Shown here piece by piece: positions 8,954 to 55,948 of a stretch of DNA of 64,000 bases (position 1 is its first letter; each line of letters opens with the position of its first letter). The DNA comes from Candidatus Poribacteria bacterium (lineage in GTDB: Bacteria > Poribacteria > WGA-4E > WGA-3G): NCBI GenBank assembly GCA_965246985.1, contig OZ251998.1, forward strand, positions 4,191,381-4,255,380, written 5' to 3'. The notes under the pieces were generated by a model that saw only the letters and a list, made by a program, of their open reading frames with translations, did no database searches and was not told where the DNA came from. The position numbers were made by a program, and so were the translations under genes.

Positions 8954-9040
8954 TGCAAGTTCCATGCTTATTAAATGGTTGCAATGCAATTCATACAAAT
9001 GCTATTATGTAGTTATAGCATGAAGAAAAAGGAGCATGAG

Positions 9041-9850
9041 ATGAAAAAGCCAATATTTTTGATTCTTATCGGTATAGGCGTTCTGCTTCTCGTCGGCGGG
9101 ATCGTTTTTGTGGTCCCGTGGTTCGGTAAAATGATGGATGAGATGGAACAGATACACGCGCAACAAGCACAACACAGGCGCGCATTGGAAGCGTCCGCCC
9201 GCGAATCGCTGACTGAAGACCAAGAAACACTGCTGTCACAACTTCTTGAAGCCACGGGGGAAACAGACACATCTCAAAGTCCAAACAACTTAGAAAGTCT
9301 CTTATCAAGCGAACCGTATCTCACCTATTTAAAAACGCAAGAAGGACAGGACTACGAAAACTTTATGGCGTACGTTGACGCAATACCGACAGAAAATATG
9401 AGAACCGTTGCGCTTTCCAGAATCAAAGCGACCCTCGGAGCAGATAAAAGCGATGAAGAATTACAAGTGTGGCTGAACTACTACTTTATTGTTCGTGAGT
9501 GGGGGACCACAGTTCAGAACCCGCTTGATAACATGAAGGAACTCAACCAGCTCCAGCAGACACACCTAATTGAACCATTGATGGAAAATGATTCCGAAAT
9601 ATCTGGCTTGTCCACTCAAATCGTACAAATCGGTCTGTCTTCTATATTCATGACAGAGGATAATAATGTGTTTCAAGAGGTTTGGCGCGAACGCTTAGAG
9701 ACACACGGGGAACAAGAGGGACTGCTGCTGTGTGCTGTTGCATCTCCCGGTGAATTCGCGCTTATGCGTTCCTTTTTCGCGGATATGGCAGCATTCCAAA
9801 CATGGATTCTCACACGTCCTGAACCTGAAGTGCAAAACTCAGAACAATAA
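9041..9850 (+). CDS. hypothetical membrane-anchored protein, paralog of 2955-3815
   Basis: RBS AAAAAGGAG precedes the ATG at 9041. The ORF is open from 8975. N-terminal TM segment. Paralogous to 2955-3815. Confidence 0.6.
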   Translation: MKKPIFLILIGIGVLLLVGGIVFVVPWFGKMMDEMEQIHAQQAQHRRALEASARESLTEDQETLLSQLLEATGETDTSQSPNNLESLLSSEPYLTYLKTQEGQDYENFMAYVDAIPTENMRTVALSRIKATLGADKSDEELQVWLNYYFIVREWGTTVQNPLDNMKELNQLQQTHLIEPLMENDSEISGLSTQIVQIGLSSIFMTEDNNVFQEVWRERLETHGEQEGLLLCAVASPGEFALMRSFFADMAAFQTWILTRPEPEVQNSEQ

Positions 9851-9911: not shown

Positions 9912-10073
9912 GCAGCACACAACTCATCCATACTGGCAAATTCAATGGTTCATGGATACGCTAACATCATTATTTGGATCTCCACATAATTTATTCTATA
10001 TTTCCCAATTTTAATTGATTTTTTTCAAAGCCTTCGGATTAAACCCCGTAGGCTATTTTTATTGGAGAGAAAA

Positions 10074-11915
10074 ATGGATACCAACAATACACATTCCCCC
10101 AACACAGAATCAGAATCCCGTCCGTCTGCAATAAAGACGCTGCGCCGCTTCTTCTTCGTCGCTTGGCACGCCAGCCGATTCGGAGCGATTGCGCAAGCTC
10201 TTCTGACACTTGTACACGGGTGCATTCCTATAGGGATCCTCTGGGCAAGTCGGGAACTGGTGAATCTCATCGCTGCGATTCTCGACAAGGAAACGGATCC
10301 GAGTTTAGAGACCGCAGCACCATGGGTGATTGCATTGGTTCTTTTGGCAATGTTGCGAAATATAGCAGGCACTTGTGATGGATACCTGCAATGGAAGATG
10401 AAAAACCTTATCGGACTCCACCAGCAGCGCGCCTTACTTGAAGCCACGACGCATATCGACTTTGCCGTTTTTGATCAACCGCAGACGTACGATTTGATAC
10501 AACGGGCGCGACAAGCCTTGGGGCATCGGCTCACTAACCTGCTGCGATTTCTAACGGAGATTGGGCAACTCTGTGTAACACTTGTAGGCTATGGTATCAT
10601 CCTATGGGTAGCGGATCCGTTGCTCGTACTCGTAGTAGTGTTACCCGCTATACCCTCCGCTTGGCTTAAAGTTAGGGCAGCCGAAGGGAGGTACAGCCAC
10701 GATTACGAAGCGACACCTGTACGGCGTATGATGGATTACATGCTGAGTCTACTACTGGGCTCCTCTTCTGGACAGGAAGTGCGACTCTATGGGCTTTTCG
10801 GGACGCTCTTTGGACGCTGGCAAACGAATCATCAAAAATGGAAGAAAGAATCGCTTGCAAAAATCTGGACGGAAGCGAGGGCATCCATCGGTACAACTAT
10901 CGCCGAAGTCGTTGCTTATGCAATAGCGATTGGAATTCTCGCTGCGCGTATTGTGGAAGGCAATCTCACGCTTGGGGATTATGTGATTCTTACCGGCACC
11001 GCTGCATTCTTCCAAGGTGATCTTGAGGGATTGCTTTCCCAAATACAAAACATACTTGAAGACGTACCCTTGCTTCGTGATTTGCATCTCCTCTTAGAAC
11101 GCGCCAAAACAACTCGCACACAGTCAGGAACCGAGATATTTCCGCAGCCTCTACAACATGGCGTAGAGGTCAGCAATTTACGCTTCCGATATCGGGGTGC
11201 AACTGACGATGTACTACAAGACATAAACTTTCATGTACGTCCCGGTGAGATAATTAGCATCGTAGGTGTTAACGGTGCAGGCAAATCAACACTTATCAAA
11301 CTACTGCTCGGATTATACCAGCCTGATGATGGAACAATCCGATATGATGACAAAAATATCGCCGCAATTGCCCCGGAACAGATAGCCCTGAACTGTGCCG
11401 CCGTTTTCCAAGACTTTGCGAGGTTTCGTAGACCTGTGCGAGAAGAATTGGTGCCAGGTCCACCAAACCTCCATATTGACGACGACGCGCTCTGGCGCGT
11501 CATCAATGCGGTTGGCATCGAGGAACGTTTTCAAACCCTTCCGCACGGCTTGGATACTTTCCTTGACCCTTCACTCGGTGAAGAAGGTGAAGGTGCAGAG
11601 TTATCTGGTGGAGAATGGCAAAAAGTCGCACTTGCACGGGCTTTAGTCAGAAATCCGCAAGTCCTTGTTCTTGACGAACCGACTGCAGCGTTGGATCCAC
11701 AGGCTGAAGTCGAACTCTACCAACGTTTCGTTGAACTTGCTGCTGGACGGATGACATTCTTGATTTCACATCGAATCGGATCCGCGCGTCTCGCTGACCG
11801 TATCTTGGTATTAGATTCGGGTCGTATTGTTGAAGACGGCACACATGAAGCGTTACTTGCCCGAAATGGGCTCTACGCCAGATTTTTTCAAGCACAAGCA
11901 CACTGGTACCAATAA
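10074..11915 (+). CDS. ABC transporter, fused permease/ATP-binding protein (type I exporter, MsbA-like)
   Basis: Six-TM N-terminal half. Walker A GVNGAGKST, signature LSGGEWQKVALARAL, Walker B LVLDEPTAALD. ATG at 10074 with a GGAGAG RBS (the ORF is open from TTG at 10062). Confidence 0.9.
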   Translation: MDTNNTHSPNTESESRPSAIKTLRRFFFVAWHASRFGAIAQALLTLVHGCIPIGILWASRELVNLIAAILDKETDPSLETAAPWVIALVLLAMLRNIAGTCDGYLQWKMKNLIGLHQQRALLEATTHIDFAVFDQPQTYDLIQRARQALGHRLTNLLRFLTEIGQLCVTLVGYGIILWVADPLLVLVVVLPAIPSAWLKVRAAEGRYSHDYEATPVRRMMDYMLSLLLGSSSGQEVRLYGLFGTLFGRWQTNHQKWKKESLAKIWTEARASIGTTIAEVVAYAIAIGILAARIVEGNLTLGDYVILTGTAAFFQGDLEGLLSQIQNILEDVPLLRDLHLLLERAKTTRTQSGTEIFPQPLQHGVEVSNLRFRYRGATDDVLQDINFHVRPGEIISIVGVNGAGKSTLIKLLLGLYQPDDGTIRYDDKNIAAIAPEQIALNCAAVFQDFARFRRPVREELVPGPPNLHIDDDALWRVINAVGIEERFQTLPHGLDTFLDPSLGEEGEGAELSGGEWQKVALARALVRNPQVLVLDEPTAALDPQAEVELYQRFVELAAGRMTFLISHRIGSARLADRILVLDSGRIVEDGTHEALLARNGLYARFFQAQAHWYQ

Positions 11916-12456
11916 TACCAAATTAACCCCATTTGTAGCGCGAGGTCCCTGTGCCTCGCAATGCTGACTTGATCAAAAAGATTCTAAGCAAGTTAAGTTG
12001 GTATCATACCAAATTAACCCCATTTGTAGCGCGAGGTCCCTGTGCCTCGCAATGCTGACTTGATCAAAAGACTTCTAAGCAAGTTAAGTTGGTATCATAC
12101 CAAATTAACCCCATTTGTAGCGCGAGGTCCCTGTGCCTCGCAATGCTGACTTGATCAAAAGATTCTAAGCAAGTTAAGTTGGTATCATACCAAATTAACC
12201 CCATTTGTAGCGCGAGGTCCCTGTGCCTCGCAATGCTGACTTGATCAAAAGATTCTAAGCAAGTTAAGTTGGTATCATACCAAATTAACCCCATTTGTAG
12301 CGCGAGGTCCCTGTGCCTCGCAATGCTGACTTGATCAAAAGATTCTAAGCAAGTTAAGTTGGTATCATACCAAATTAACCCCATTTGTAGCGCGAGGTCC
12401 CTGTGCCTCGCAATGCTGACTTGATCAAAAGATTCTAAGCAAGTTAAGTTGGTATA
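11915..12456. repeat. tandem array of six 90-91-bp units of the IS630-related MITE (family M91)
   Basis: Unit ATACCAAATTAACCCCATTTGTAGCGCGAGGTCCCTGTGCCTCGCAATGCTGACTTGATCAAAAGATTCTAAGCAAGTTAAGTTGGTATC repeated head-to-tail six times. It starts at the stop codon of the upstream ABC gene and ends 21 bp before the next ABC start. Confidence 0.9.
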
Positions 12457-12477
12457 AAAAGCAAAGAGGATTCTGGA

Positions 12478-14337
12478 ATGCAGAACGATAATGGAAAATT
12501 GAAGACATGGGGATTGGCTGCCAAAGAAAGTATCATCGCATACTTCCGAACTTTTGCGATCGTCTGGAAGAGTGGTGCACTCGCGCTTGTGGGTATGATG
12601 CTTCTCACGTTATCACTTGGTGTCCTGCCCGCCGGTGATTATTTCGTGACGAAGCACTTAGTCAATGCAATTACCGCTGCTATAGGTGATGCTAACTGGT
12701 GGCGACAAGTTCTCCCGTGGCTTTTAGGTCTCCTCGGTTTACAAATTTATAGTACGCTTGCAGACCAGTTACGAGAACCGCTGCGCTTCTACGTCCGCGA
12801 AAACATTGAAGTTTGGATTAGTGAGGGTATCGTTCGCAAATCCAATACAATGGAGCTGATTGAATTCCAGACACCTGAATTTCAAAACGCGCTTGCGCGC
12901 GCTCGCACCATGTCTGGTGTAGAACTTGAAGAAATTGTTTGGTGGATCGTTGACAGCATTCAACAATTAATCAGTGTCATTGCGCTCGGTATCATACTGT
13001 GGGGTCTCCATCCATTGTTAGCGTTGCTCCCTACGGTGACCGGTTTAGCTTCTTGGTGGAGTGGTTCACGTTTTGCTGCTGACACCTACGATCTTGATGT
13101 CCAACAGACATCAAAACGGCGAGAGCGAGACGCGTTAGAAGGTATTCTAACGGATCGGGGCGCGGGCAAAGAAGTCCGGTTATATCAAGCGCAGGACCTA
13201 TGGATAGACCGCTGGCAAAGGCTATGGAGAGAATTAATACAGGGACAGCAGGCAATTGAACGTCGCAAAGTTTTTGCACATCTCGCGATCGACATCTCAC
13301 GCGGTTTGTTGTTCGCTTGTTCACTTATTCTATTATTGCTACAAGTCTTTCGGGGTGGGTTGACCATCGGTGAGTATATCGCCGCTGCTACCGCCATCGT
13401 CAGCTTGGACGGCATCTGGAACAGTGTCGCGAGTTATTTTCAGTGGATAGCAGACGATATGCGCCGTTTGTCAGGAGATTTGTACGCGTTTTTGGATCAC
13501 GATGCAGACACAGCATCCGGGTTGAAAACGCCTCCGACAAGCGGATCCCCGTCGGAATCTTATAAAAATTCGTCTTTGATAGCCACACAAGAACCGTCGT
13601 ATCTTCAGATAGAAAACGTTTCATTTCTCTATCCAAATGCGCAAGAGCCAGTGCTAAGCCACGTAAACCTCACATTGAAAAAAGGAGAGCGAGTGGCACT
13701 CGTTGGACCCAATGGTGCGGGGAAATCCACATTGGCACGCCTACTTCTTGGGCTATACAGTCCGCAAACAGGTGTAATTCGTGTGGAGAATATACCCTTA
13801 AATGAAGAAAATCGTCAGGAGTGGTTGAAGCATTGTAGTGCGGTGTTTCAGGATTTCACCTGCTACCACCTCACCGCACGCGAGAATATCATCTTTGGCG
13901 ACTTAGAACATCCTGAACGTATGGAAACGGCAGCAACCGCAGGAGGTGCAGTTTCCGTTATAGACGGACTTGCCGCAGGTTACGAGACTGTGTTAGGACC
14001 CACTTTTGGGGGGCGCGACCTCTCCGGCGGCGAATGGCAACGTATCGCGACAGCAAGGGGTTTTATGCGAGAAACGCCATGGCTGGTGGTTCTTGATGAA
14101 CCGACTGCTGCACTGGACCCATTAGCCGAACAGGCGATCTATGAACGATTTATTGAACGGAGTGCTGGACGTACATCAATGATAATTTCGCATCGACTGT
14201 CTTCAGTCCGCACTTGTGATCGGATTCTTGTCCTTGATAACGGAACAATCATTGAGGACGGGGATCATGAAACGTTATTGGCAAAAGATGGACTTTACGC
14301 CAAGTTCTTCAAGGCACAAGCACAATGGTATGTTTAA
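12478..14337 (+). CDS. ABC transporter, fused permease/ATP-binding protein (paralog of 10074-11915)
   Basis: GPNGAGKST, LSGGEWQRIATARGF, VVLDEPTAALD. RBS AAGAGGA. Confidence 0.9.
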   Translation: MQNDNGKLKTWGLAAKESIIAYFRTFAIVWKSGALALVGMMLLTLSLGVLPAGDYFVTKHLVNAITAAIGDANWWRQVLPWLLGLLGLQIYSTLADQLREPLRFYVRENIEVWISEGIVRKSNTMELIEFQTPEFQNALARARTMSGVELEEIVWWIVDSIQQLISVIALGIILWGLHPLLALLPTVTGLASWWSGSRFAADTYDLDVQQTSKRRERDALEGILTDRGAGKEVRLYQAQDLWIDRWQRLWRELIQGQQAIERRKVFAHLAIDISRGLLFACSLILLLLQVFRGGLTIGEYIAAATAIVSLDGIWNSVASYFQWIADDMRRLSGDLYAFLDHDADTASGLKTPPTSGSPSESYKNSSLIATQEPSYLQIENVSFLYPNAQEPVLSHVNLTLKKGERVALVGPNGAGKSTLARLLLGLYSPQTGVIRVENIPLNEENRQEWLKHCSAVFQDFTCYHLTARENIIFGDLEHPERMETAATAGGAVSVIDGLAAGYETVLGPTFGGRDLSGGEWQRIATARGFMRETPWLVVLDEPTAALDPLAEQAIYERFIERSAGRTSMIISHRLSSVRTCDRILVLDNGTIIEDGDHETLLAKDGLYAKFFKAQAQWYV

Positions 14338-23065: not shown

Positions 23066-23222
23066 TCCGCACAAGGATGGGTGAAACAATCCTACGTGCA
23101 GTTTAAACCGGTTTGCGTCTATTCGGAGATCCAATTCGTAACTGAATTTTTTAGCAGCAGTGGTATCCATCGGAAAACCAGAGCAAGGTTTTCTGATGCG
23201 GTTTTAATCTTACGTTTCGTAT

Positions 23223-23314
23223 TATGCCAAATTAATCCAATTTGTAGCGCGAGGTCCCTGTGCCTCGCAATGCTGACTTGATAAAAAGACTTCTAATCAC
23301 GTTAAGTTGGTATA
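23223..23314 (+). repeat. M91 MITE, solo copy, 24 bp upstream of the Rieske gene start
   Basis: TATGCCAAATTAATCCAATTTGTAGCGCGAGGTCCCTGTGCCTCGCAATGCTGACTTGATAAAAAGACTTCTAATCACGTTAAGTTGGTATA. Its 3-prime end forms TGGTATAAA. Confidence 0.85.
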
Positions 23315-23337
23315 AAACACGAAAAGACGGAGAAATT

Positions 23338-38039: not shown

Positions 38040-38105
38040 TATAGTAAAGCCCGAAAATATGTTGACACTTTAGGAAACAACAACCCCTCCCTCGCTGGCG
38101 GGGTT
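38040..38105. repeat. MITE family A copy 2, left half (split by the IS630 insertion)
   Basis: TATAGTAAAGCCCGAAAATATGTTGACACTTTAGG...CGCTGGCGGGGTT. The matching right half is at 39351-39400 (AACCCCGCC...GTGCTTTACTATAATA). Confidence 0.6.
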
Positions 38106-39350
38106 TCATGAAGATTAAAATATTAATTCGGTAATATTGTTATTCGTGTTATCCTATTGCCAAAGGAGGTATTCTCTGATGGCAAAACACCATAAGTTGG
38201 AGTTAACTGAAGGCGAAATACAAGCCCTCGTTGATCTTCGGGATAAAGGCGAACCGGCTTATCTTCGAGAGCGTGCGACAGCGTTGTTGAAAATCCATGA
38301 AGGCTTTTCTCCACATGAAGTCGCCCGCAGAGGTTTGTTGAAAAAACGCGACCCCGATACCGTTTATGCTTGGCTGCGTCGGTATCGCGAACACGGTATT
38401 AGCGGGTTGTCTAATAAACCTGGTCGAGGTCGCAAACCTGCTTTTTCACCTAAGTCGCCCGAAGAAGCCGGGTCGGAACTCTTAGTGGCAATCGGTCAGG
38501 ATCCGGGAAGCGTCAATGAGCATCAAACGCGCTGGACGCTCCGCAGTCTCGGTCAGGTCGTGCCGTGGCTTGAGGGTCTATCGCTCCCCGGCATTCATCA
38601 GATCTTCTCACGCTTGGGTCTCAGCTATAAGCGTGCCAGAGAATATCTGCGGAGTCCTGATACCGATTATGCTGAAAAACTTTCTCGCATCAAGCAAGCG
38701 TTAGAAGAAGCCCGTGAAAACCCAGAAACTTGCGTTGTCGTTTACCAAGACGAGTTTAGTTTCAATCTACAACCGAGAGTCGCAAAAGACTGGGCGGAGA
38801 CAGGGACGAAATGTCCTTTGGCACGCCAGAGTTATCTCCCAGAGGAGACCTGCTATGGCATCGGGGCGCTCAACCCACACACCGGAGATGTTGTTTATCA
38901 GCAAGTCAAAAGCTGCACGGTTGTCGCACTCCATACATTTTACACCCAGATTTGCCAACGCTACCCAAACGCTGAACGCATCTATTTGATCCAGGACAAT
39001 CGGGCGATCCACTTTCACGCGAATCTTATGGCAGCACTTCTGCCACAGACGACGAGGTTTGTTAGACCGACCCCACCGAATTGGAGCGAGAAACCGTCAA
39101 AGAAAATAGGCAAACTTGAGAAACTCCCTATTGAGATATTGCAGCTCCCAACGTATGCCTGTTGGACGAATCCGATTGAGAAGTTGTGGCGCTGGGCGCG
39201 TCAAGCTGTCATACATCTGCATCGTCTCAGCAATGACTGGACAGCCCTTCAGGAGAAAGTCAGCGACTTCATGGAACAGTTCAAAGGCGGGTCACAGGAG
39301 TTGCTACACTATGTCGGATTATTACCGAATTAATTATTTAATCTTCATCT
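38106..39350 (+). mobile_element. IS630-family insertion sequence #1 inserted into the loop of the MITE-A hairpin
   Basis: AT-rich terminal inverted repeats of about 30 bp ((T/A)(C/G)ATGAAGATTAAA(A)TA(T)TTAATTCGGTAAT at both ends). A single DDE transposase lies inside. Confidence 0.75.
38179..39333 (+). CDS. IS630-family transposase
   Basis: N-terminal HTH. DDE region with IYLIQDNRAIH and LQLPTYACWTNPIEKLW (the DD..E block with the P..P.E..W motif of IS630/Tc1). RBS AAGGAGG before the ATG at 38179. Confidence 0.8.
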   Translation: MAKHHKLELTEGEIQALVDLRDKGEPAYLRERATALLKIHEGFSPHEVARRGLLKKRDPDTVYAWLRRYREHGISGLSNKPGRGRKPAFSPKSPEEAGSELLVAIGQDPGSVNEHQTRWTLRSLGQVVPWLEGLSLPGIHQIFSRLGLSYKRAREYLRSPDTDYAEKLSRIKQALEEARENPETCVVVYQDEFSFNLQPRVAKDWAETGTKCPLARQSYLPEETCYGIGALNPHTGDVVYQQVKSCTVVALHTFYTQICQRYPNAERIYLIQDNRAIHFHANLMAALLPQTTRFVRPTPPNWSEKPSKKIGKLEKLPIEILQLPTYACWTNPIEKLWRWARQAVIHLHRLSNDWTALQEKVSDFMEQFKGGSQELLHYVGLLPN

Positions 39351-39436
39351 AACCCCGCCATTCCGTTGATGTCCAAGTAATTATGTGCTTTACTATAATA
39401 TACGTTTAGGCTCACAGATTTGTCTATTTGAGGTGT

Positions 39437-46607: not shown

Positions 46608-46694
46608 GGACTTACGCAAAATTGGTTCGCGCACCGATAAACCGCTGGCGAGGTTTCAAACCTCGCCAGCAAATATGGGGAATTTGCGTAAGTC
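46608..46694. repeat. MITE-like element family D (GGACTTACGCAAA ... TTTGCGTAAGTC ends)
   Basis: 12-bp terminal inverted repeats. Internal GCTGGCGAGGTTTCAAACCTCGCCAGC hairpin. Other copies at 55548-55675 and partial at 63238-63300. Confidence 0.6.
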
Positions 46695-46704
46695 TTAACT
46701 ATAA

Positions 46705-46792
46705 TACCAAATTAACCCCATTTGTAGCGCGAGGTCCCTGTGCCTCGCAATGCTGACTTGATCAAAAGACTTCTAATCAAGTTAATTTGGTA
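46705..46792. repeat. M91 MITE, solo copy with perfect TA...TA flanks, lying 11 bp from the family-D element
   Basis: TA-CCAAATTAACCCC...GTTAATTTGG-TA. The right end gives TTTGGTATAAT. Confidence 0.85.
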
Positions 46793-53974: not shown

Positions 53975-53997
53975 CGTGCGTTCCTTGTGAAGTTATA

Positions 53998-55146
53998 CCA
54001 TATTAACGCGACTATTCTTGTGTATATTTTTTAGATATGTTATTGTGAAGAGATGAAAAAGCAAAAACATGAGGTTTTCCCCCACTTTTCAGTAGAAGTT
54101 GTTAAACAAAGGTATCTTGAATGTGAATGTCTTCGGGAACGGACGCACTGGCATATTATTTGGCTCCTTGCGGATACCAGAGATTCACGCACCCCCCGGC
54201 AAGTCGCTGAGATTGTAGGATGCACGCCGGACTGGGTTCGCAAGTTGCTCAAACGCTATAATGCTGAAGGCGAAGCCGCTTTGCGAGATAAACGCAAAAA
54301 TAATACAGGTGTGCGTTTTTTGGATGAAACACAGCAAGCCGCCCTTGCAGCTGCCCTTTCTGCGCCTCCTGGTGATGGGGGTCTTTGGACGGGTCCGAAA
54401 GTGGCTGCGTGGATATCTGAGACACTCCAGCGTCGTGTCAGTGACGTGTCAGGTTGGAAATATCTCAAACGTCTCGGTTATACTTTACAAACACCTCGTC
54501 CGCAACATCAGGCAGCCGCAACACCCGAGGCACAGCAAACATTTAAAAAAAAACTCAAGGAGCGGGTAGCTACGCTTGAAAGTCAGCACCCAGAGAAACC
54601 GGTAGAGATCTGGGCAGAAGACGAGACGCGCTTGGGATTATTGCCGGTTCATCGGCGTGTCTGGGCGAAGCGAGGTGAAAGACCGATAGCCCCCGTGTGT
54701 CCGGCATATAAGTGGTTTTATGGTTTCGGTTTTGTCCGTCCACAGACAGGTGAGACCTATTGGCTGCTGATGCCGAGTGTGAGTGTTGAAGTCATGAACC
54801 TTGCCTTGGCAGAGTTTGCGCGTGATGTGAACCCGGAAGGCAAGAAACAGATAATCCTTTTGTTAGATCGTGCCGGTTTTCACACGGGTAAGGATTTAGA
54901 AGTCCCAGAAGGGATTGAGTTATTTCATTTGCCCCCGTACACACCAGAACTTCAACCTGCCGAACGGCTCTGGCCTTTGTTGCGAGAGGTGGTTGTGAAT
55001 AAAGTTTTTACAACGCTCTCAGCACTTGAAGAAGCCGTTGTGAAAAGGTGTCAATGGTTCTCTGAAAACACAAAGAAGGTGCAGGCACATGTCGGTTTTC
55101 TGTGGATTTGCAAAATGGAAAAATAATACAAATCACGTTAATTTGG
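53998..55146 (+). mobile_element. IS630-family insertion sequence #2, the probable parent of the M91 MITEs
   Basis: Termini CCATATTAACG... and ...CGTTAATTTGG flanked by TA on both sides. The ends ATACCA(T/A)ATTAAC are the same as the MITE ends ATACCAAATTAAC / GTTAATTTGGTAT. Confidence 0.75.
54053..55126 (+). CDS. IS630-family transposase
   Basis: HTH N-terminus and DDE domain (WAEDETRLGL, LLLDRAGFH, LPPYTPELQPAERLW). Confidence 0.85.
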   Translation: MKKQKHEVFPHFSVEVVKQRYLECECLRERTHWHIIWLLADTRDSRTPRQVAEIVGCTPDWVRKLLKRYNAEGEAALRDKRKNNTGVRFLDETQQAALAAALSAPPGDGGLWTGPKVAAWISETLQRRVSDVSGWKYLKRLGYTLQTPRPQHQAAATPEAQQTFKKKLKERVATLESQHPEKPVEIWAEDETRLGLLPVHRRVWAKRGERPIAPVCPAYKWFYGFGFVRPQTGETYWLLMPSVSVEVMNLALAEFARDVNPEGKKQIILLLDRAGFHTGKDLEVPEGIELFHLPPYTPELQPAERLWPLLREVVVNKVFTTLSALEEAVVKRCQWFSENTKKVQAHVGFLWICKMEK

Positions 55147-55547
55147 TATTAGATAAACTTTTGATAAGGATACCGTATCTATCTCTGTTCGTCAAGGAAA
55201 ATCAGTCTGATTCTCCCTGACAGTTTTCGCAAACGTGTGATACTTTTGAAAACTGAACAATGATGGGACAGTATCGTTAGGATGGATTGTCAAACCATCA
55301 TTATTTAACCGAAAACCCTCTTTTATTAGCTGTGATCCTTCTGATTGGTTGGTTTTTCTATCGGGCTGGCAGCGTTTGTTTCTACACTGACAACTCGAGA
55401 AGAAGATACTTTTGTGTAGATGCAGCTTTCTGGGTCCCATCTATCCTCGTCTCTATTGTGGATATTCTACTGATTGCTATGTGTATCTCAACTTCGTAAT
55501 AGCAGGCATTTTCAAACCTTCCTATCCTGAAAATTCTTTAATCCTCA

Positions 55548-55857: not shown

Positions 55858-55948
55858 ATACCAAATTAACCCAATTTGTAGCGCGAGGTCCCTGTGCCTC
55901 GCAATGCTGACTTGATCAAAAGACTTCTAATCACGTTAATTGGGTATA
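55858..55948 (+). repeat. M91 MITE, solo copy 54 bp upstream of the sulfatase start
   Basis: ATACCAAATTAACCCAATTTGTAGCGCGAGGTCCCTGTGCCTCGCAATGCTGACTTGATCAAAAGACTTCTAATCACGTTAATTGGGTATA. Confidence 0.85.

Follow-up and report, generated by a model that had tools for sequence, protein, structure and literature searches.

A six-copy tandem array of an IS630-family miniature transposon at a stop codon between two ABC exporter genes of Candidatus Poribacteria

The window, i.e. the whole stretch of 64,000 nucleotides of Candidatus Poribacteria DNA analysed here, contains a head-to-tail array of six nearly identical units between two ABC exporter genes, ABC1 (upstream) and ABC2 (downstream). The unit is a MITE (miniature inverted-repeat transposable element) with the ends TACC...GGTA and a target site duplication (TSD) of 3 bp, TAA or TTA, which is the sole reading that fits both insertion sites compared with their empty counterparts. 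The array as a whole probably represents a chain of a non-autonomous IS630-family transposon that grew by re-insertion and unequal exchange and is carried as tolerated selfish DNA. An earlier note on this DNA had suggested that the six hairpins could have a regulatory role; the alternatives to our reading are weighed below.

Element ends, target duplication and chains

Orthologous loci were recovered via homologues of ABC2, which has dozens of orthologues; the source is named for 6 among the 120 listed, all of them Candidatus Poribacteria. Exact look-ups of the window proteins gave no recorded entry. Three relatives are empty at the ABC1-ABC2 spacer (site A), namely L010 and L015, whose ABC2 is 97% identical to that of the window, and L012 with 88% identity. 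The empty site reads ccaaTAAaaagc (ccaaTAAaaag) in L010 and L015 and the filled site of the window ccaaTAA-TACC...GGTA-TAAaaagc; in L010 the spacer region is ...ggtaccaaTAAaaagcaaagagg...ATG, with a spacer of 19 nt. Site B, which follows a gene for a TonB-dependent receptor, is empty in the window and in L003 (gtagTTAtagc) and holds a single copy in L012 (gtagTTA-TACC...GGTA-TTAtagc). The earlier note had described terminal inverted repeats (TIRs) flanked by TA; the TIRs are present, but the TA belongs to the element ends, and the real duplication at the array is the trinucleotide TAA. A canonical TA duplication with the ends CC...GG is ruled out by both empty sites, as the flanks that it predicts were not seen, and an insertion between T and A without duplication fails at site B, and at site A too unless a homopolymer miscount is assumed.

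The window also harbours a putative autonomous insertion sequence (IS) with MITE-like termini. A search of the window with the 13-nt terminal repeat of the MITE yielded one further inverted pair at 53995 and 55149 that encloses the open reading frame (ORF) 54053-55126, the product of which contains the Pfam domains DDE_3 and HTH_33/29/23 and matches NCBIfam NF033545 'IS630 family transposase' with 221.5 bits (cut-off 100). By homology it belongs with the DDE transposases of IS630/Tc1, and its helix-turn-helix domains are N-terminal. Within the window, IS and MITE have 12 of the 13 terminal nucleotides in common on the left and approximately 18 nt on the right, and in another genome the left end of the IS matches the first ~25 nt of the MITE, a stretch ending in GTAG. 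The nine IS copies sampled (the window copy and eight from other contigs, two of these at one shared insertion site) all have the same trinucleotide on both sides, either TAA/TAA or TTA/TTA without any mismatch. A duplication of TA is the norm for IS630 members that have been characterised, e.g. ISY100 (PMC2170065), a rule that neither these nine copies nor the two empty-site comparisons follow. In a literature search that did not extend to ISfinder, we came across no bacterial element of the IS630 family for which a TNA/TWA duplication is described.

The MITE has TIRs of 12-13 nt (TACCAAATTAAC / GTTAAKTTGGTA) that are 92-100% complementary, and no coding capacity: no plus-strand ORF is listed, and direct reading shows stops in all three plus frames. 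Its 33-nt core matches the window nine times, six times in the array and three times in solo copies (23224, 46704, 55858), against none expected from shuffles. Besides these four loci, copies are present in several further Poribacteria contigs, with presence and absence differing between strains; the repeat core also matches at least the chromosome of a 'Candidatus Poribacteria bacterium' (L001), a scan of metagenomes for the array junction gave one contig, and a scan of viral contigs gave no match to the hairpin. A small non-coding element with TIRs, a TSD proven by empty sites, dispersed polymorphic solo copies and an IS630-family partner with matching ends in the same genome, here even in the same window, is a MITE, as the earlier note had proposed.

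The reconstructed targets have T at position -2 in 13 of 21 cases and A at position +4 in 16 of 21, giving the context T-N-[TWA]-N-A (W being A or T). With a T-W-A target, TAA stop codons are natural targets, and the array is placed on the stop codon of ABC1 because the element targets this trinucleotide. The position itself had been recognised correctly in the earlier note, since the TAA at 11913-11915 directly adjoins the first unit; no designed position has to be assumed, as the placement follows from the T-W-A target. In L017, the MITE at 9804 is likewise located on a TAA stop codon.

Some copies deviate from this scheme. In L018 (11591-11678), a MITE with a TGA/TGA duplication lies at a truD gene that gene calling divides into two ORFs (298 and 87 aa), which suggests an insertion into coding sequence; this copy demonstrates that the target can be T-N-A and is not strictly T-W-A. 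Where the flanking trinucleotides are unequal, they differ solely at the middle base (TTA/TAA, TAA/TTA, TAA/TCA) in all five clean cases, comprising window 23222-23315, L017 9801-9895, L018 5721-5819, L002 1533-1627 and the array junctions of the window. The single exception is a decayed copy (L016 3841) with TTA/TTG. No simple insertion model accounts for this pattern.

Elements of this family frequently abut. The search for element ends across all loci revealed 27 abutting junctions, of which 26 have a 3-nt spacer of the form T[A/T/C]A. Transposition-only junctions include MITE-IS (L016, L018) and IS-MITE pairs (L019), an inverted pair of MITEs of different subfamilies (L018 8677/8769) and diverged MITE pairs (L017, L002). 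Within a total of 78.5 kb from a single genome, 8 junctions of this kind occur among 21 elements; under a uniform choice of T-W-A sites, 8 or more of the 21 insertions would fall into resident duplications with a probability of about 5e-10. The earlier note called tandem amplification of a MITE unusual; in this family a tandem arrangement is no exception, with chains at about half of the occupied sites analysed. On one side of the TSD of a resident element, its terminal TA restores the context T-N-[TWA]-N-A, and we infer from these sequences that an incoming copy favours the duplicated target next to a copy already in place.

Further observations concern the structure of single copies and related elements. 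L001 contains, at 145-225, two isolated copies of TGTAG-GCGAGGTCCCCGTGCCTCG that lack terminal repeats and lie 49 nt apart; they can be aligned with positions 7-47 of the MITE, of which they are probably degenerate remnants. One MITE copy (L019 7100-7221) has a 33-nt palindromic insertion in the loop of its central hairpin, i.e. a nested small element, and a 159-bp element (L018 4280-4438) with two hairpin cores within one pair of ends resembles a tandem dimer with its internal junction deleted. At 38098-39358 the window contains a second IS630-type transposase ORF (38137-39333, 398 aa, Pfam DDE_3 and HTH domains), flanked by inverted repeats of ~39 bp (38098-38136, 39319-39358) that differ from the MITE TIRs, yet hold the motif TTAATTCGGTA resembling the MITE terminal repeat. 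A strong hairpin, CTGGCGAGGTTTCAAACCTCGCCAG, is present at 46640-46672, 30 nt upstream of a solo MITE and between the paralogous minus-strand genes for ammonium transporters.

Table 1. Array, neighbouring genes and related elements in the window, with unit numbers at the two sites
Feature	Position	Strand	Remarks
Site B, empty TTA target between TonB-dependent receptor gene and next gene	9013..9015	+	1-3 units in relatives
ABC1, upstream exporter gene, fused permease/ATPase, 613 aa	10074..11915	+	Pfam ABC_tran + ABC_membrane
ABC1 stop codon TAA, target trinucleotide, left TSD copy	11913..11915	+	empty versus filled site comparison
Six-unit MITE array, head-to-tail, ends TACC...GGTA	11916..12454	+	units of 87-88 bp
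Array unit 1	11916..12003	+
Array unit 2	12007..12094	+
Array unit 3	12098..12184	+
Array unit 4	12188..12274	+
Array unit 5	12278..12364	+
Array unit 6	12368..12454	+
Right TSD copy, TAA	12455..12457	+
AGAGGA ribosome-binding site of ABC2, within the original 19-nt intercistronic spacer	12464..12469	+	direct reading
ABC2, downstream exporter gene, fused permease/ATPase, 619 aa	12478..14337	+	intact
Solo MITE, flanks TTA/TAA, 25 nt upstream of Rieske-protein gene	23225..23312	+	also in L003 and L013
Solo MITE, TSD TAA/TAA, between two minus-strand ammonium-transporter genes	46705..46792	+
Putative autonomous IS, 1153 bp, MITE-like termini TACCATATTAAC ... GTTAATTTGGTA	53996..55148	+	TSD TTA/TTA
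IS630-family DDE transposase gene, 357 aa, inside the IS	54053..55126	+	intact
Solo MITE, TSD TAA/TAA, 55 nt upstream of sulfatase gene	55859..55946	+
Units at site A (ABC1-ABC2)			window 6; L004 5; L013 5; L003 4; L014 2; L010, L015, L012 0
Units at site B (after TonB receptor gene)			L004 3; L013 2; L014 2; L012 1; window, L003 0

The array within the ABC1-ABC2 operon

ABC1 and ABC2 are paralogues with 31% identity across their full length, and both are fused permease/ATPase genes, in agreement with the earlier note. For ABC1 we use the start at 10074, as in the relatives, whose orthologues have 613 aa; the mechanical ORF begins at 10062. The array is inserted within the former spacer between the two genes, which comprises 19 nt in the empty-site relatives, and its right end lies 22 nt upstream of the ATG of ABC2 (12478) and only ~9 nt upstream of the AGAGGA ribosome-binding site (RBS), not 21 bp before the RBS as had been stated. 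The predicted GCGAGG-TCCCTGTG-CCTCGC stem-loop is present in the unit as described.

Two variants of this region were observed in relatives. In L003 (9600-9700) and L004 (9500-9580), a 4-nt deletion directly 5' of the ABC1 stop codon causes a frameshift, and the shifted ABC1 runs 16-20 codons into the first MITE unit and stops there, being called with 633 and 629 aa and not 613. In L011 (9809-10000), where ABC2 is 90% identical, the two genes are separated by an unrelated spacer of 192 nt without the MITE.

Given that the empty spacer measures only 19 nt, ABC2 most likely relies on transcription from upstream of ABC1, and the array would then have to permit read-through. ABC2 is intact in all array-bearing strains, with a ratio of nonsynonymous to synonymous substitution rates (dN/dS) of 0.07-0.09 among them at dS values of up to 0.105, and of about 0.09-0.11 between array-bearing and empty-site strains; as judged from these values, the gene is under purifying selection in the strains with the array. 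A consensus scan of positions 11700-12700 gave no site resembling an intrinsic terminator at 11916-12454 on either strand, and the same region was free of sigma-70-like promoters on both strands, although the sigma-70 consensus may not fit Poribacteria. The central hairpin is followed by AAUGCUGACUUG and not by a U tract, so that it does not have the form of an intrinsic terminator or attenuator. Rfam gave no match in the array, either at the gathering threshold for the whole window or, apart from one noise hit, at E <= 10 for the array. Among 23 diverse copies, the covariation of the central hairpin and the TIR stem did not exceed that of shuffles; the central hairpin showed one compensatory change, two G-U pairs and three disruptions. 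It is conserved as a sequence, and covariation lends no support to selection for structure.

These results bear on the possibility that the array is a selected regulatory module, the hairpins of which decouple or tune the two ABC genes as an mRNA stabiliser or RNase barrier, as an attenuator or as a spacer affecting Rho-dependent polarity, with the copy number acting as a tuning knob. Its location within the former intercistronic spacer, its retention across a strain divergence of dS about 0.1 and the prevailing co-orientation of the elements with neighbouring genes would be compatible with such a role, and intercistronic repetitive extragenic palindromic (REP) elements stabilise upstream mRNA according to a reference cited in a passage of PMC3184786. 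The sequence also folds better than its shuffles (z = -3.7 for a single unit, z = -6.4 for the whole array), which is, however, expected for inverted repeats. We nevertheless regard a regulatory module as unlikely. Apart from the lack of terminator-like sites, of an RNA family match and of covariation above the control, close relatives with no unit retain the same operon, the MITE family builds arrays and chains elsewhere too, at sites with no relation to this one and also beside IS copies, and the position on the stop codon is explained by the TWA target. Moreover, there would be no obvious reason for a heterodimeric exporter to express its subunits unequally. The attenuator or RNase-barrier role suggested in the earlier note therefore found no support in the terminator, promoter, Rfam and covariation analyses or in the ABC2 dN/dS of ~0.07-0.09, and the array is most likely tolerated selfish DNA and not a regulator, as far as can be read from the sequence.

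A related possibility combines insertion preference and function: the IS630-family transposase might home to the duplicated target beside resident copies, e.g. by pairing with end-bound transposase, so that chains would form by design and arrays in operons would serve as contingency loci, the copy number of which tunes the ratio of the ABC half-transporters. We consider this quite unlikely.

It has also to be considered whether each unit, or the last unit with its flank, acts as an outward promoter for ABC2, with an extended -10 sequence as the candidate, namely TGGTATAAA where the array ends and TGGTATCAT where units join. At the four MITE loci of the window, the right end together with its flank has the sequence TGGTATAAA, TGGTATAAT or TGGTATAAG, three of these loci are situated 22-55 nt upstream of a co-oriented start codon, and Correia-type MITEs carry promoters (PMC3184786). 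In contrast, the consensus scan revealed no sigma-70-like promoter in the array (the rules in Poribacteria may differ), a usable -35 element is missing, a transcript starting ~7 nt after TATAAA would begin on or within the RBS of ABC2, and TATAA is simply the TA of the element tip joined to the TAA duplication. An outward promoter is hence improbable.

Growth of the array

According to Tandem Repeats Finder, the array (11915-12455) has a period of 90, 6.0 copies, 99% matches and a score of 1064, and a repeat search of the window gave start-to-start spacings of 90/91/90/90/90, so that the six near-identical tandem copies of 90/91 bp listed in the earlier note are upheld. Units 1 and 2 are each one base longer than units 3-6, which are identical, and five 3-nt TCA spacers link the six units.

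The junctions are informative with respect to the origin of the array. The junction equals the flanking TSD at site B (TTA), in most chains of L016-L019 (TAA/TTA) and in the dimer of L001, where it is TTA on the element strand and TAA on the plus strand. At site A, in contrast, every junction in all five array-bearing strains is TCA, which differs by one base from the TAA flanks. The variant GTGGGTA is private to L013, where it occurs in 5/5 site-A units, and GATTC is private to the window, where five of the six array units carry it; array-specific variants are absent from solo copies and common within arrays. The first and last units are conserved between strains, and the interior units are mosaic. 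Because of the uniform TCA, the identity of units 3-6, the shared strain-private variants and the conserved edges, the array is taken to have expanded by local exchange and not by six insertions. The near-identity of the units reflects, on the sequence evidence, concerted evolution, which the earlier note had offered as one of two explanations; the other, a recent amplification, does not hold, since the TCA-junction array is common to lineages with an ABC2 dS of 0.07-0.105 and is therefore not recent.

Six separate transpositions into successive duplicated targets, without any unequal exchange, would be in line with the clear re-use of resident target duplications by this MITE family. They would, however, have had to produce the same non-consensus TCA at all five junctions and identical units 3-6, together with array-specific variants that are shared within arrays and absent from solo copies, and they do not account for copy numbers that differ among near-identical strains while the edge units remain unchanged. 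We therefore consider this course of events very improbable.

The copy number at site A varies between strains, as the earlier note had suggested should be checked, with 6/5/5/4/2/0 units in long-read contigs; in L003, the first of the four units is internally deleted. The array-bearing contigs come from different samples, and their long-read status was judged from the contig names. Five independent long-read contigs with site-A arrays of 2-6 units and consistent edges speak against the assembly collapse or expansion that would have undermined the finding, even though short-read assemblies break at this locus, five of their contigs beginning exactly at the right edge of the array (GGTATAAAAAGC). 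An assembly artefact, a CRISPR, a tandem array of small-RNA genes or a coding repeat can practically be dismissed, since the units abut with a constant 3-nt TCA in place of unique CRISPR spacers (as the earlier note had observed), a consensus scan found no promoter or terminator per unit, and the minus frame left open by units 3-6 is destroyed by the 91-bp units of L004 and L013. This frame corresponds to an antisense ORF of 106 aa (12064-12384, minus strand) through the array, where units 3-6 measure exactly 90 bp and leave one minus frame without a stop; the period of 91 bp in other strains rules it out as a coding repeat.

Taken together, we propose the following course of events. The MITE would be mobilised in trans by transposases like the one encoded at 54053-55126. 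The target here was the TAA that ends ABC1, at a distance of 19 nt upstream of the start codon of ABC2, and the duplication regenerated this stop. A second copy presumably entered the duplicated target beside the first, owing to the T-N-[TWA]-N-A preference and the context recreated by the terminal TA of the resident, and one early substitution would have changed the junction from TAA to TCA. Unequal homologous exchange or replication slippage between copies of the same orientation may then have expanded and contracted the array in the manner of a minisatellite. The array would be transcribed within the ABC1-ABC2 message and ABC2 expressed by read-through, any shift in the ABC1:ABC2 ratio being a side effect and not a selected function.

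Several points weigh against this proposal. The TCA junction between TAA flanks requires an extra substitution or another origin of the dimer, e.g. the transposition of a pre-formed dimer, and the site-B junction GTTA in L004 resembles a microhomology-mediated duplication and not an insertion, so that there is more than one route to a first dimer. The measured target preference is modest and probably unable to explain the size of the enrichment alone, and a tethering of the transposase to resident ends is thus a further assumption. Read-through and the absence of a function are deduced from the sequence and from the selection on ABC2. Finally, the elements are mostly co-directional with neighbouring genes (~11/14, cases that are not independent), and conservation is higher in the central 33 nt than in the arms; this co-orientation or core conservation could hint at a constraint at the RNA level or by protein binding.

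Significance and comparison with known systems

No new kind of system is described here, MITEs, elements of the IS630 family and tandem arrays derived from transposons having all been known before. What is of interest is a bacterial IS630-family clade that duplicates T-W-A and not TA, by which TAA stop codons become natural targets, and that strongly re-uses the duplicated target beside a resident, giving rise to chains of MITEs and ISs. The series of 0-6 copies over two sites documents, in a bacterium, the path from double insertion via a dimer to an array by unequal exchange, the same route by which, as has been proposed, satellite DNA arose from transposons in eukaryotes. In practical terms, short-read assemblies break at arrays of this type, which could be used to mark strains in metagenomes with Poribacteria. 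The locus is of moderate interest to those who specialise in mobile DNA, whereas its interest as a regulatory element is low. A literature search for MITEs of Poribacteria gave nothing relevant, and the word 'tandem' is absent from two 2024 papers on prokaryotic MITEs, a review and a large survey (PMC10969869, PMC11602168).

The GTAG followed by a short GC-rich hairpin and the repetition in intergenic or intercistronic regions are reminiscent of REP elements and bacterial interspersed mosaic elements (BIMEs). BIMEs have REPs in alternating orientation and neither TIRs nor target duplications. The array units, in contrast, are all in direct orientation and possess both TIRs and a TSD; no search aimed at a RAYT gene was made. 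A reading of GTAG and hairpin as a REP served by a RAYT is rejected, given the match in another genome between the left end of the IS and the first ~25 nt of the MITE up to GTAG; as judged from this match, the MITE probably received its GTAG from the IS and not as a recognition head for a RAYT.

With mycobacterial interspersed repetitive units (MIRU) and intergenic variable-number tandem repeats, the array has in common that tandem units occupy an operon spacer and vary in copy number by strain. MIRU are tandem units of 40-100 bp in the intergenic regions of operons, with strain-dependent copy numbers. They have no TIRs, TSD or transposase partner, and their short ORFs overlap the stop and start codons of the neighbouring genes. 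The sense frames of the MITE unit, in contrast, are closed, so that such an overlap of unit ORFs does not occur. A passage of PMC3184786 cites Supply et al. (1997) for the MIRU. The BOX elements of Streptococcus pneumoniae are MITE-like and contain a tandem part that varies in number between strains (PMC3049150); there, only the internal boxB repeats are multiplied between single boxA and boxC, whereas here the whole element is repeated together with the target trinucleotide.

With respect to the duplicated target, a parallel is provided by the fungal Fot/pogo transposons, which duplicate TAA and not TA (PMC7386202) and likewise belong to the wider IS630-Tc1-mariner group, but are fungal members of the pogo superfamily. 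As a non-coding element of this size, the MITE resembles RUP, the partner of which is IS630-Spn1, and the Stowaway-type MITEs of the IS630/Tc1/mariner superfamily, which measure ~90-107 bp and have TIRs that match an IS630-family IS of the same genome. Like RUP, it is intergenic and presumably mobilised in trans, and for RUP a preference for insertion into IS elements or their vicinity is reported (PMC3049150). Unlike RUP and Stowaway, however, the Poribacteria MITE duplicates 3 bp (TWA) and not TA, and it forms head-to-tail arrays and mixed chains sharing one duplication.

The proposed growth of the array corresponds to the 'double insertion' route described for Drosophila (McGurk and Barbash 2018, PMC5932611), in which a site preference leads to dimers, the junction retains the TSD and the dimer is subsequently enlarged by unequal exchange. 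Head-to-tail arrays are also formed by Bari1, a Tc1-like element of the same superfamily (PMC8834629). In contrast to the Drosophila arrays and Bari1, which are eukaryotic, mostly full-length and heterochromatic, the array described here consists of a bacterial MITE inside an operon, and, unlike for the Drosophila arrays, related genomes present the full series of 0, 1, 2, 3, 4, 5 and 6 copies across two sites.

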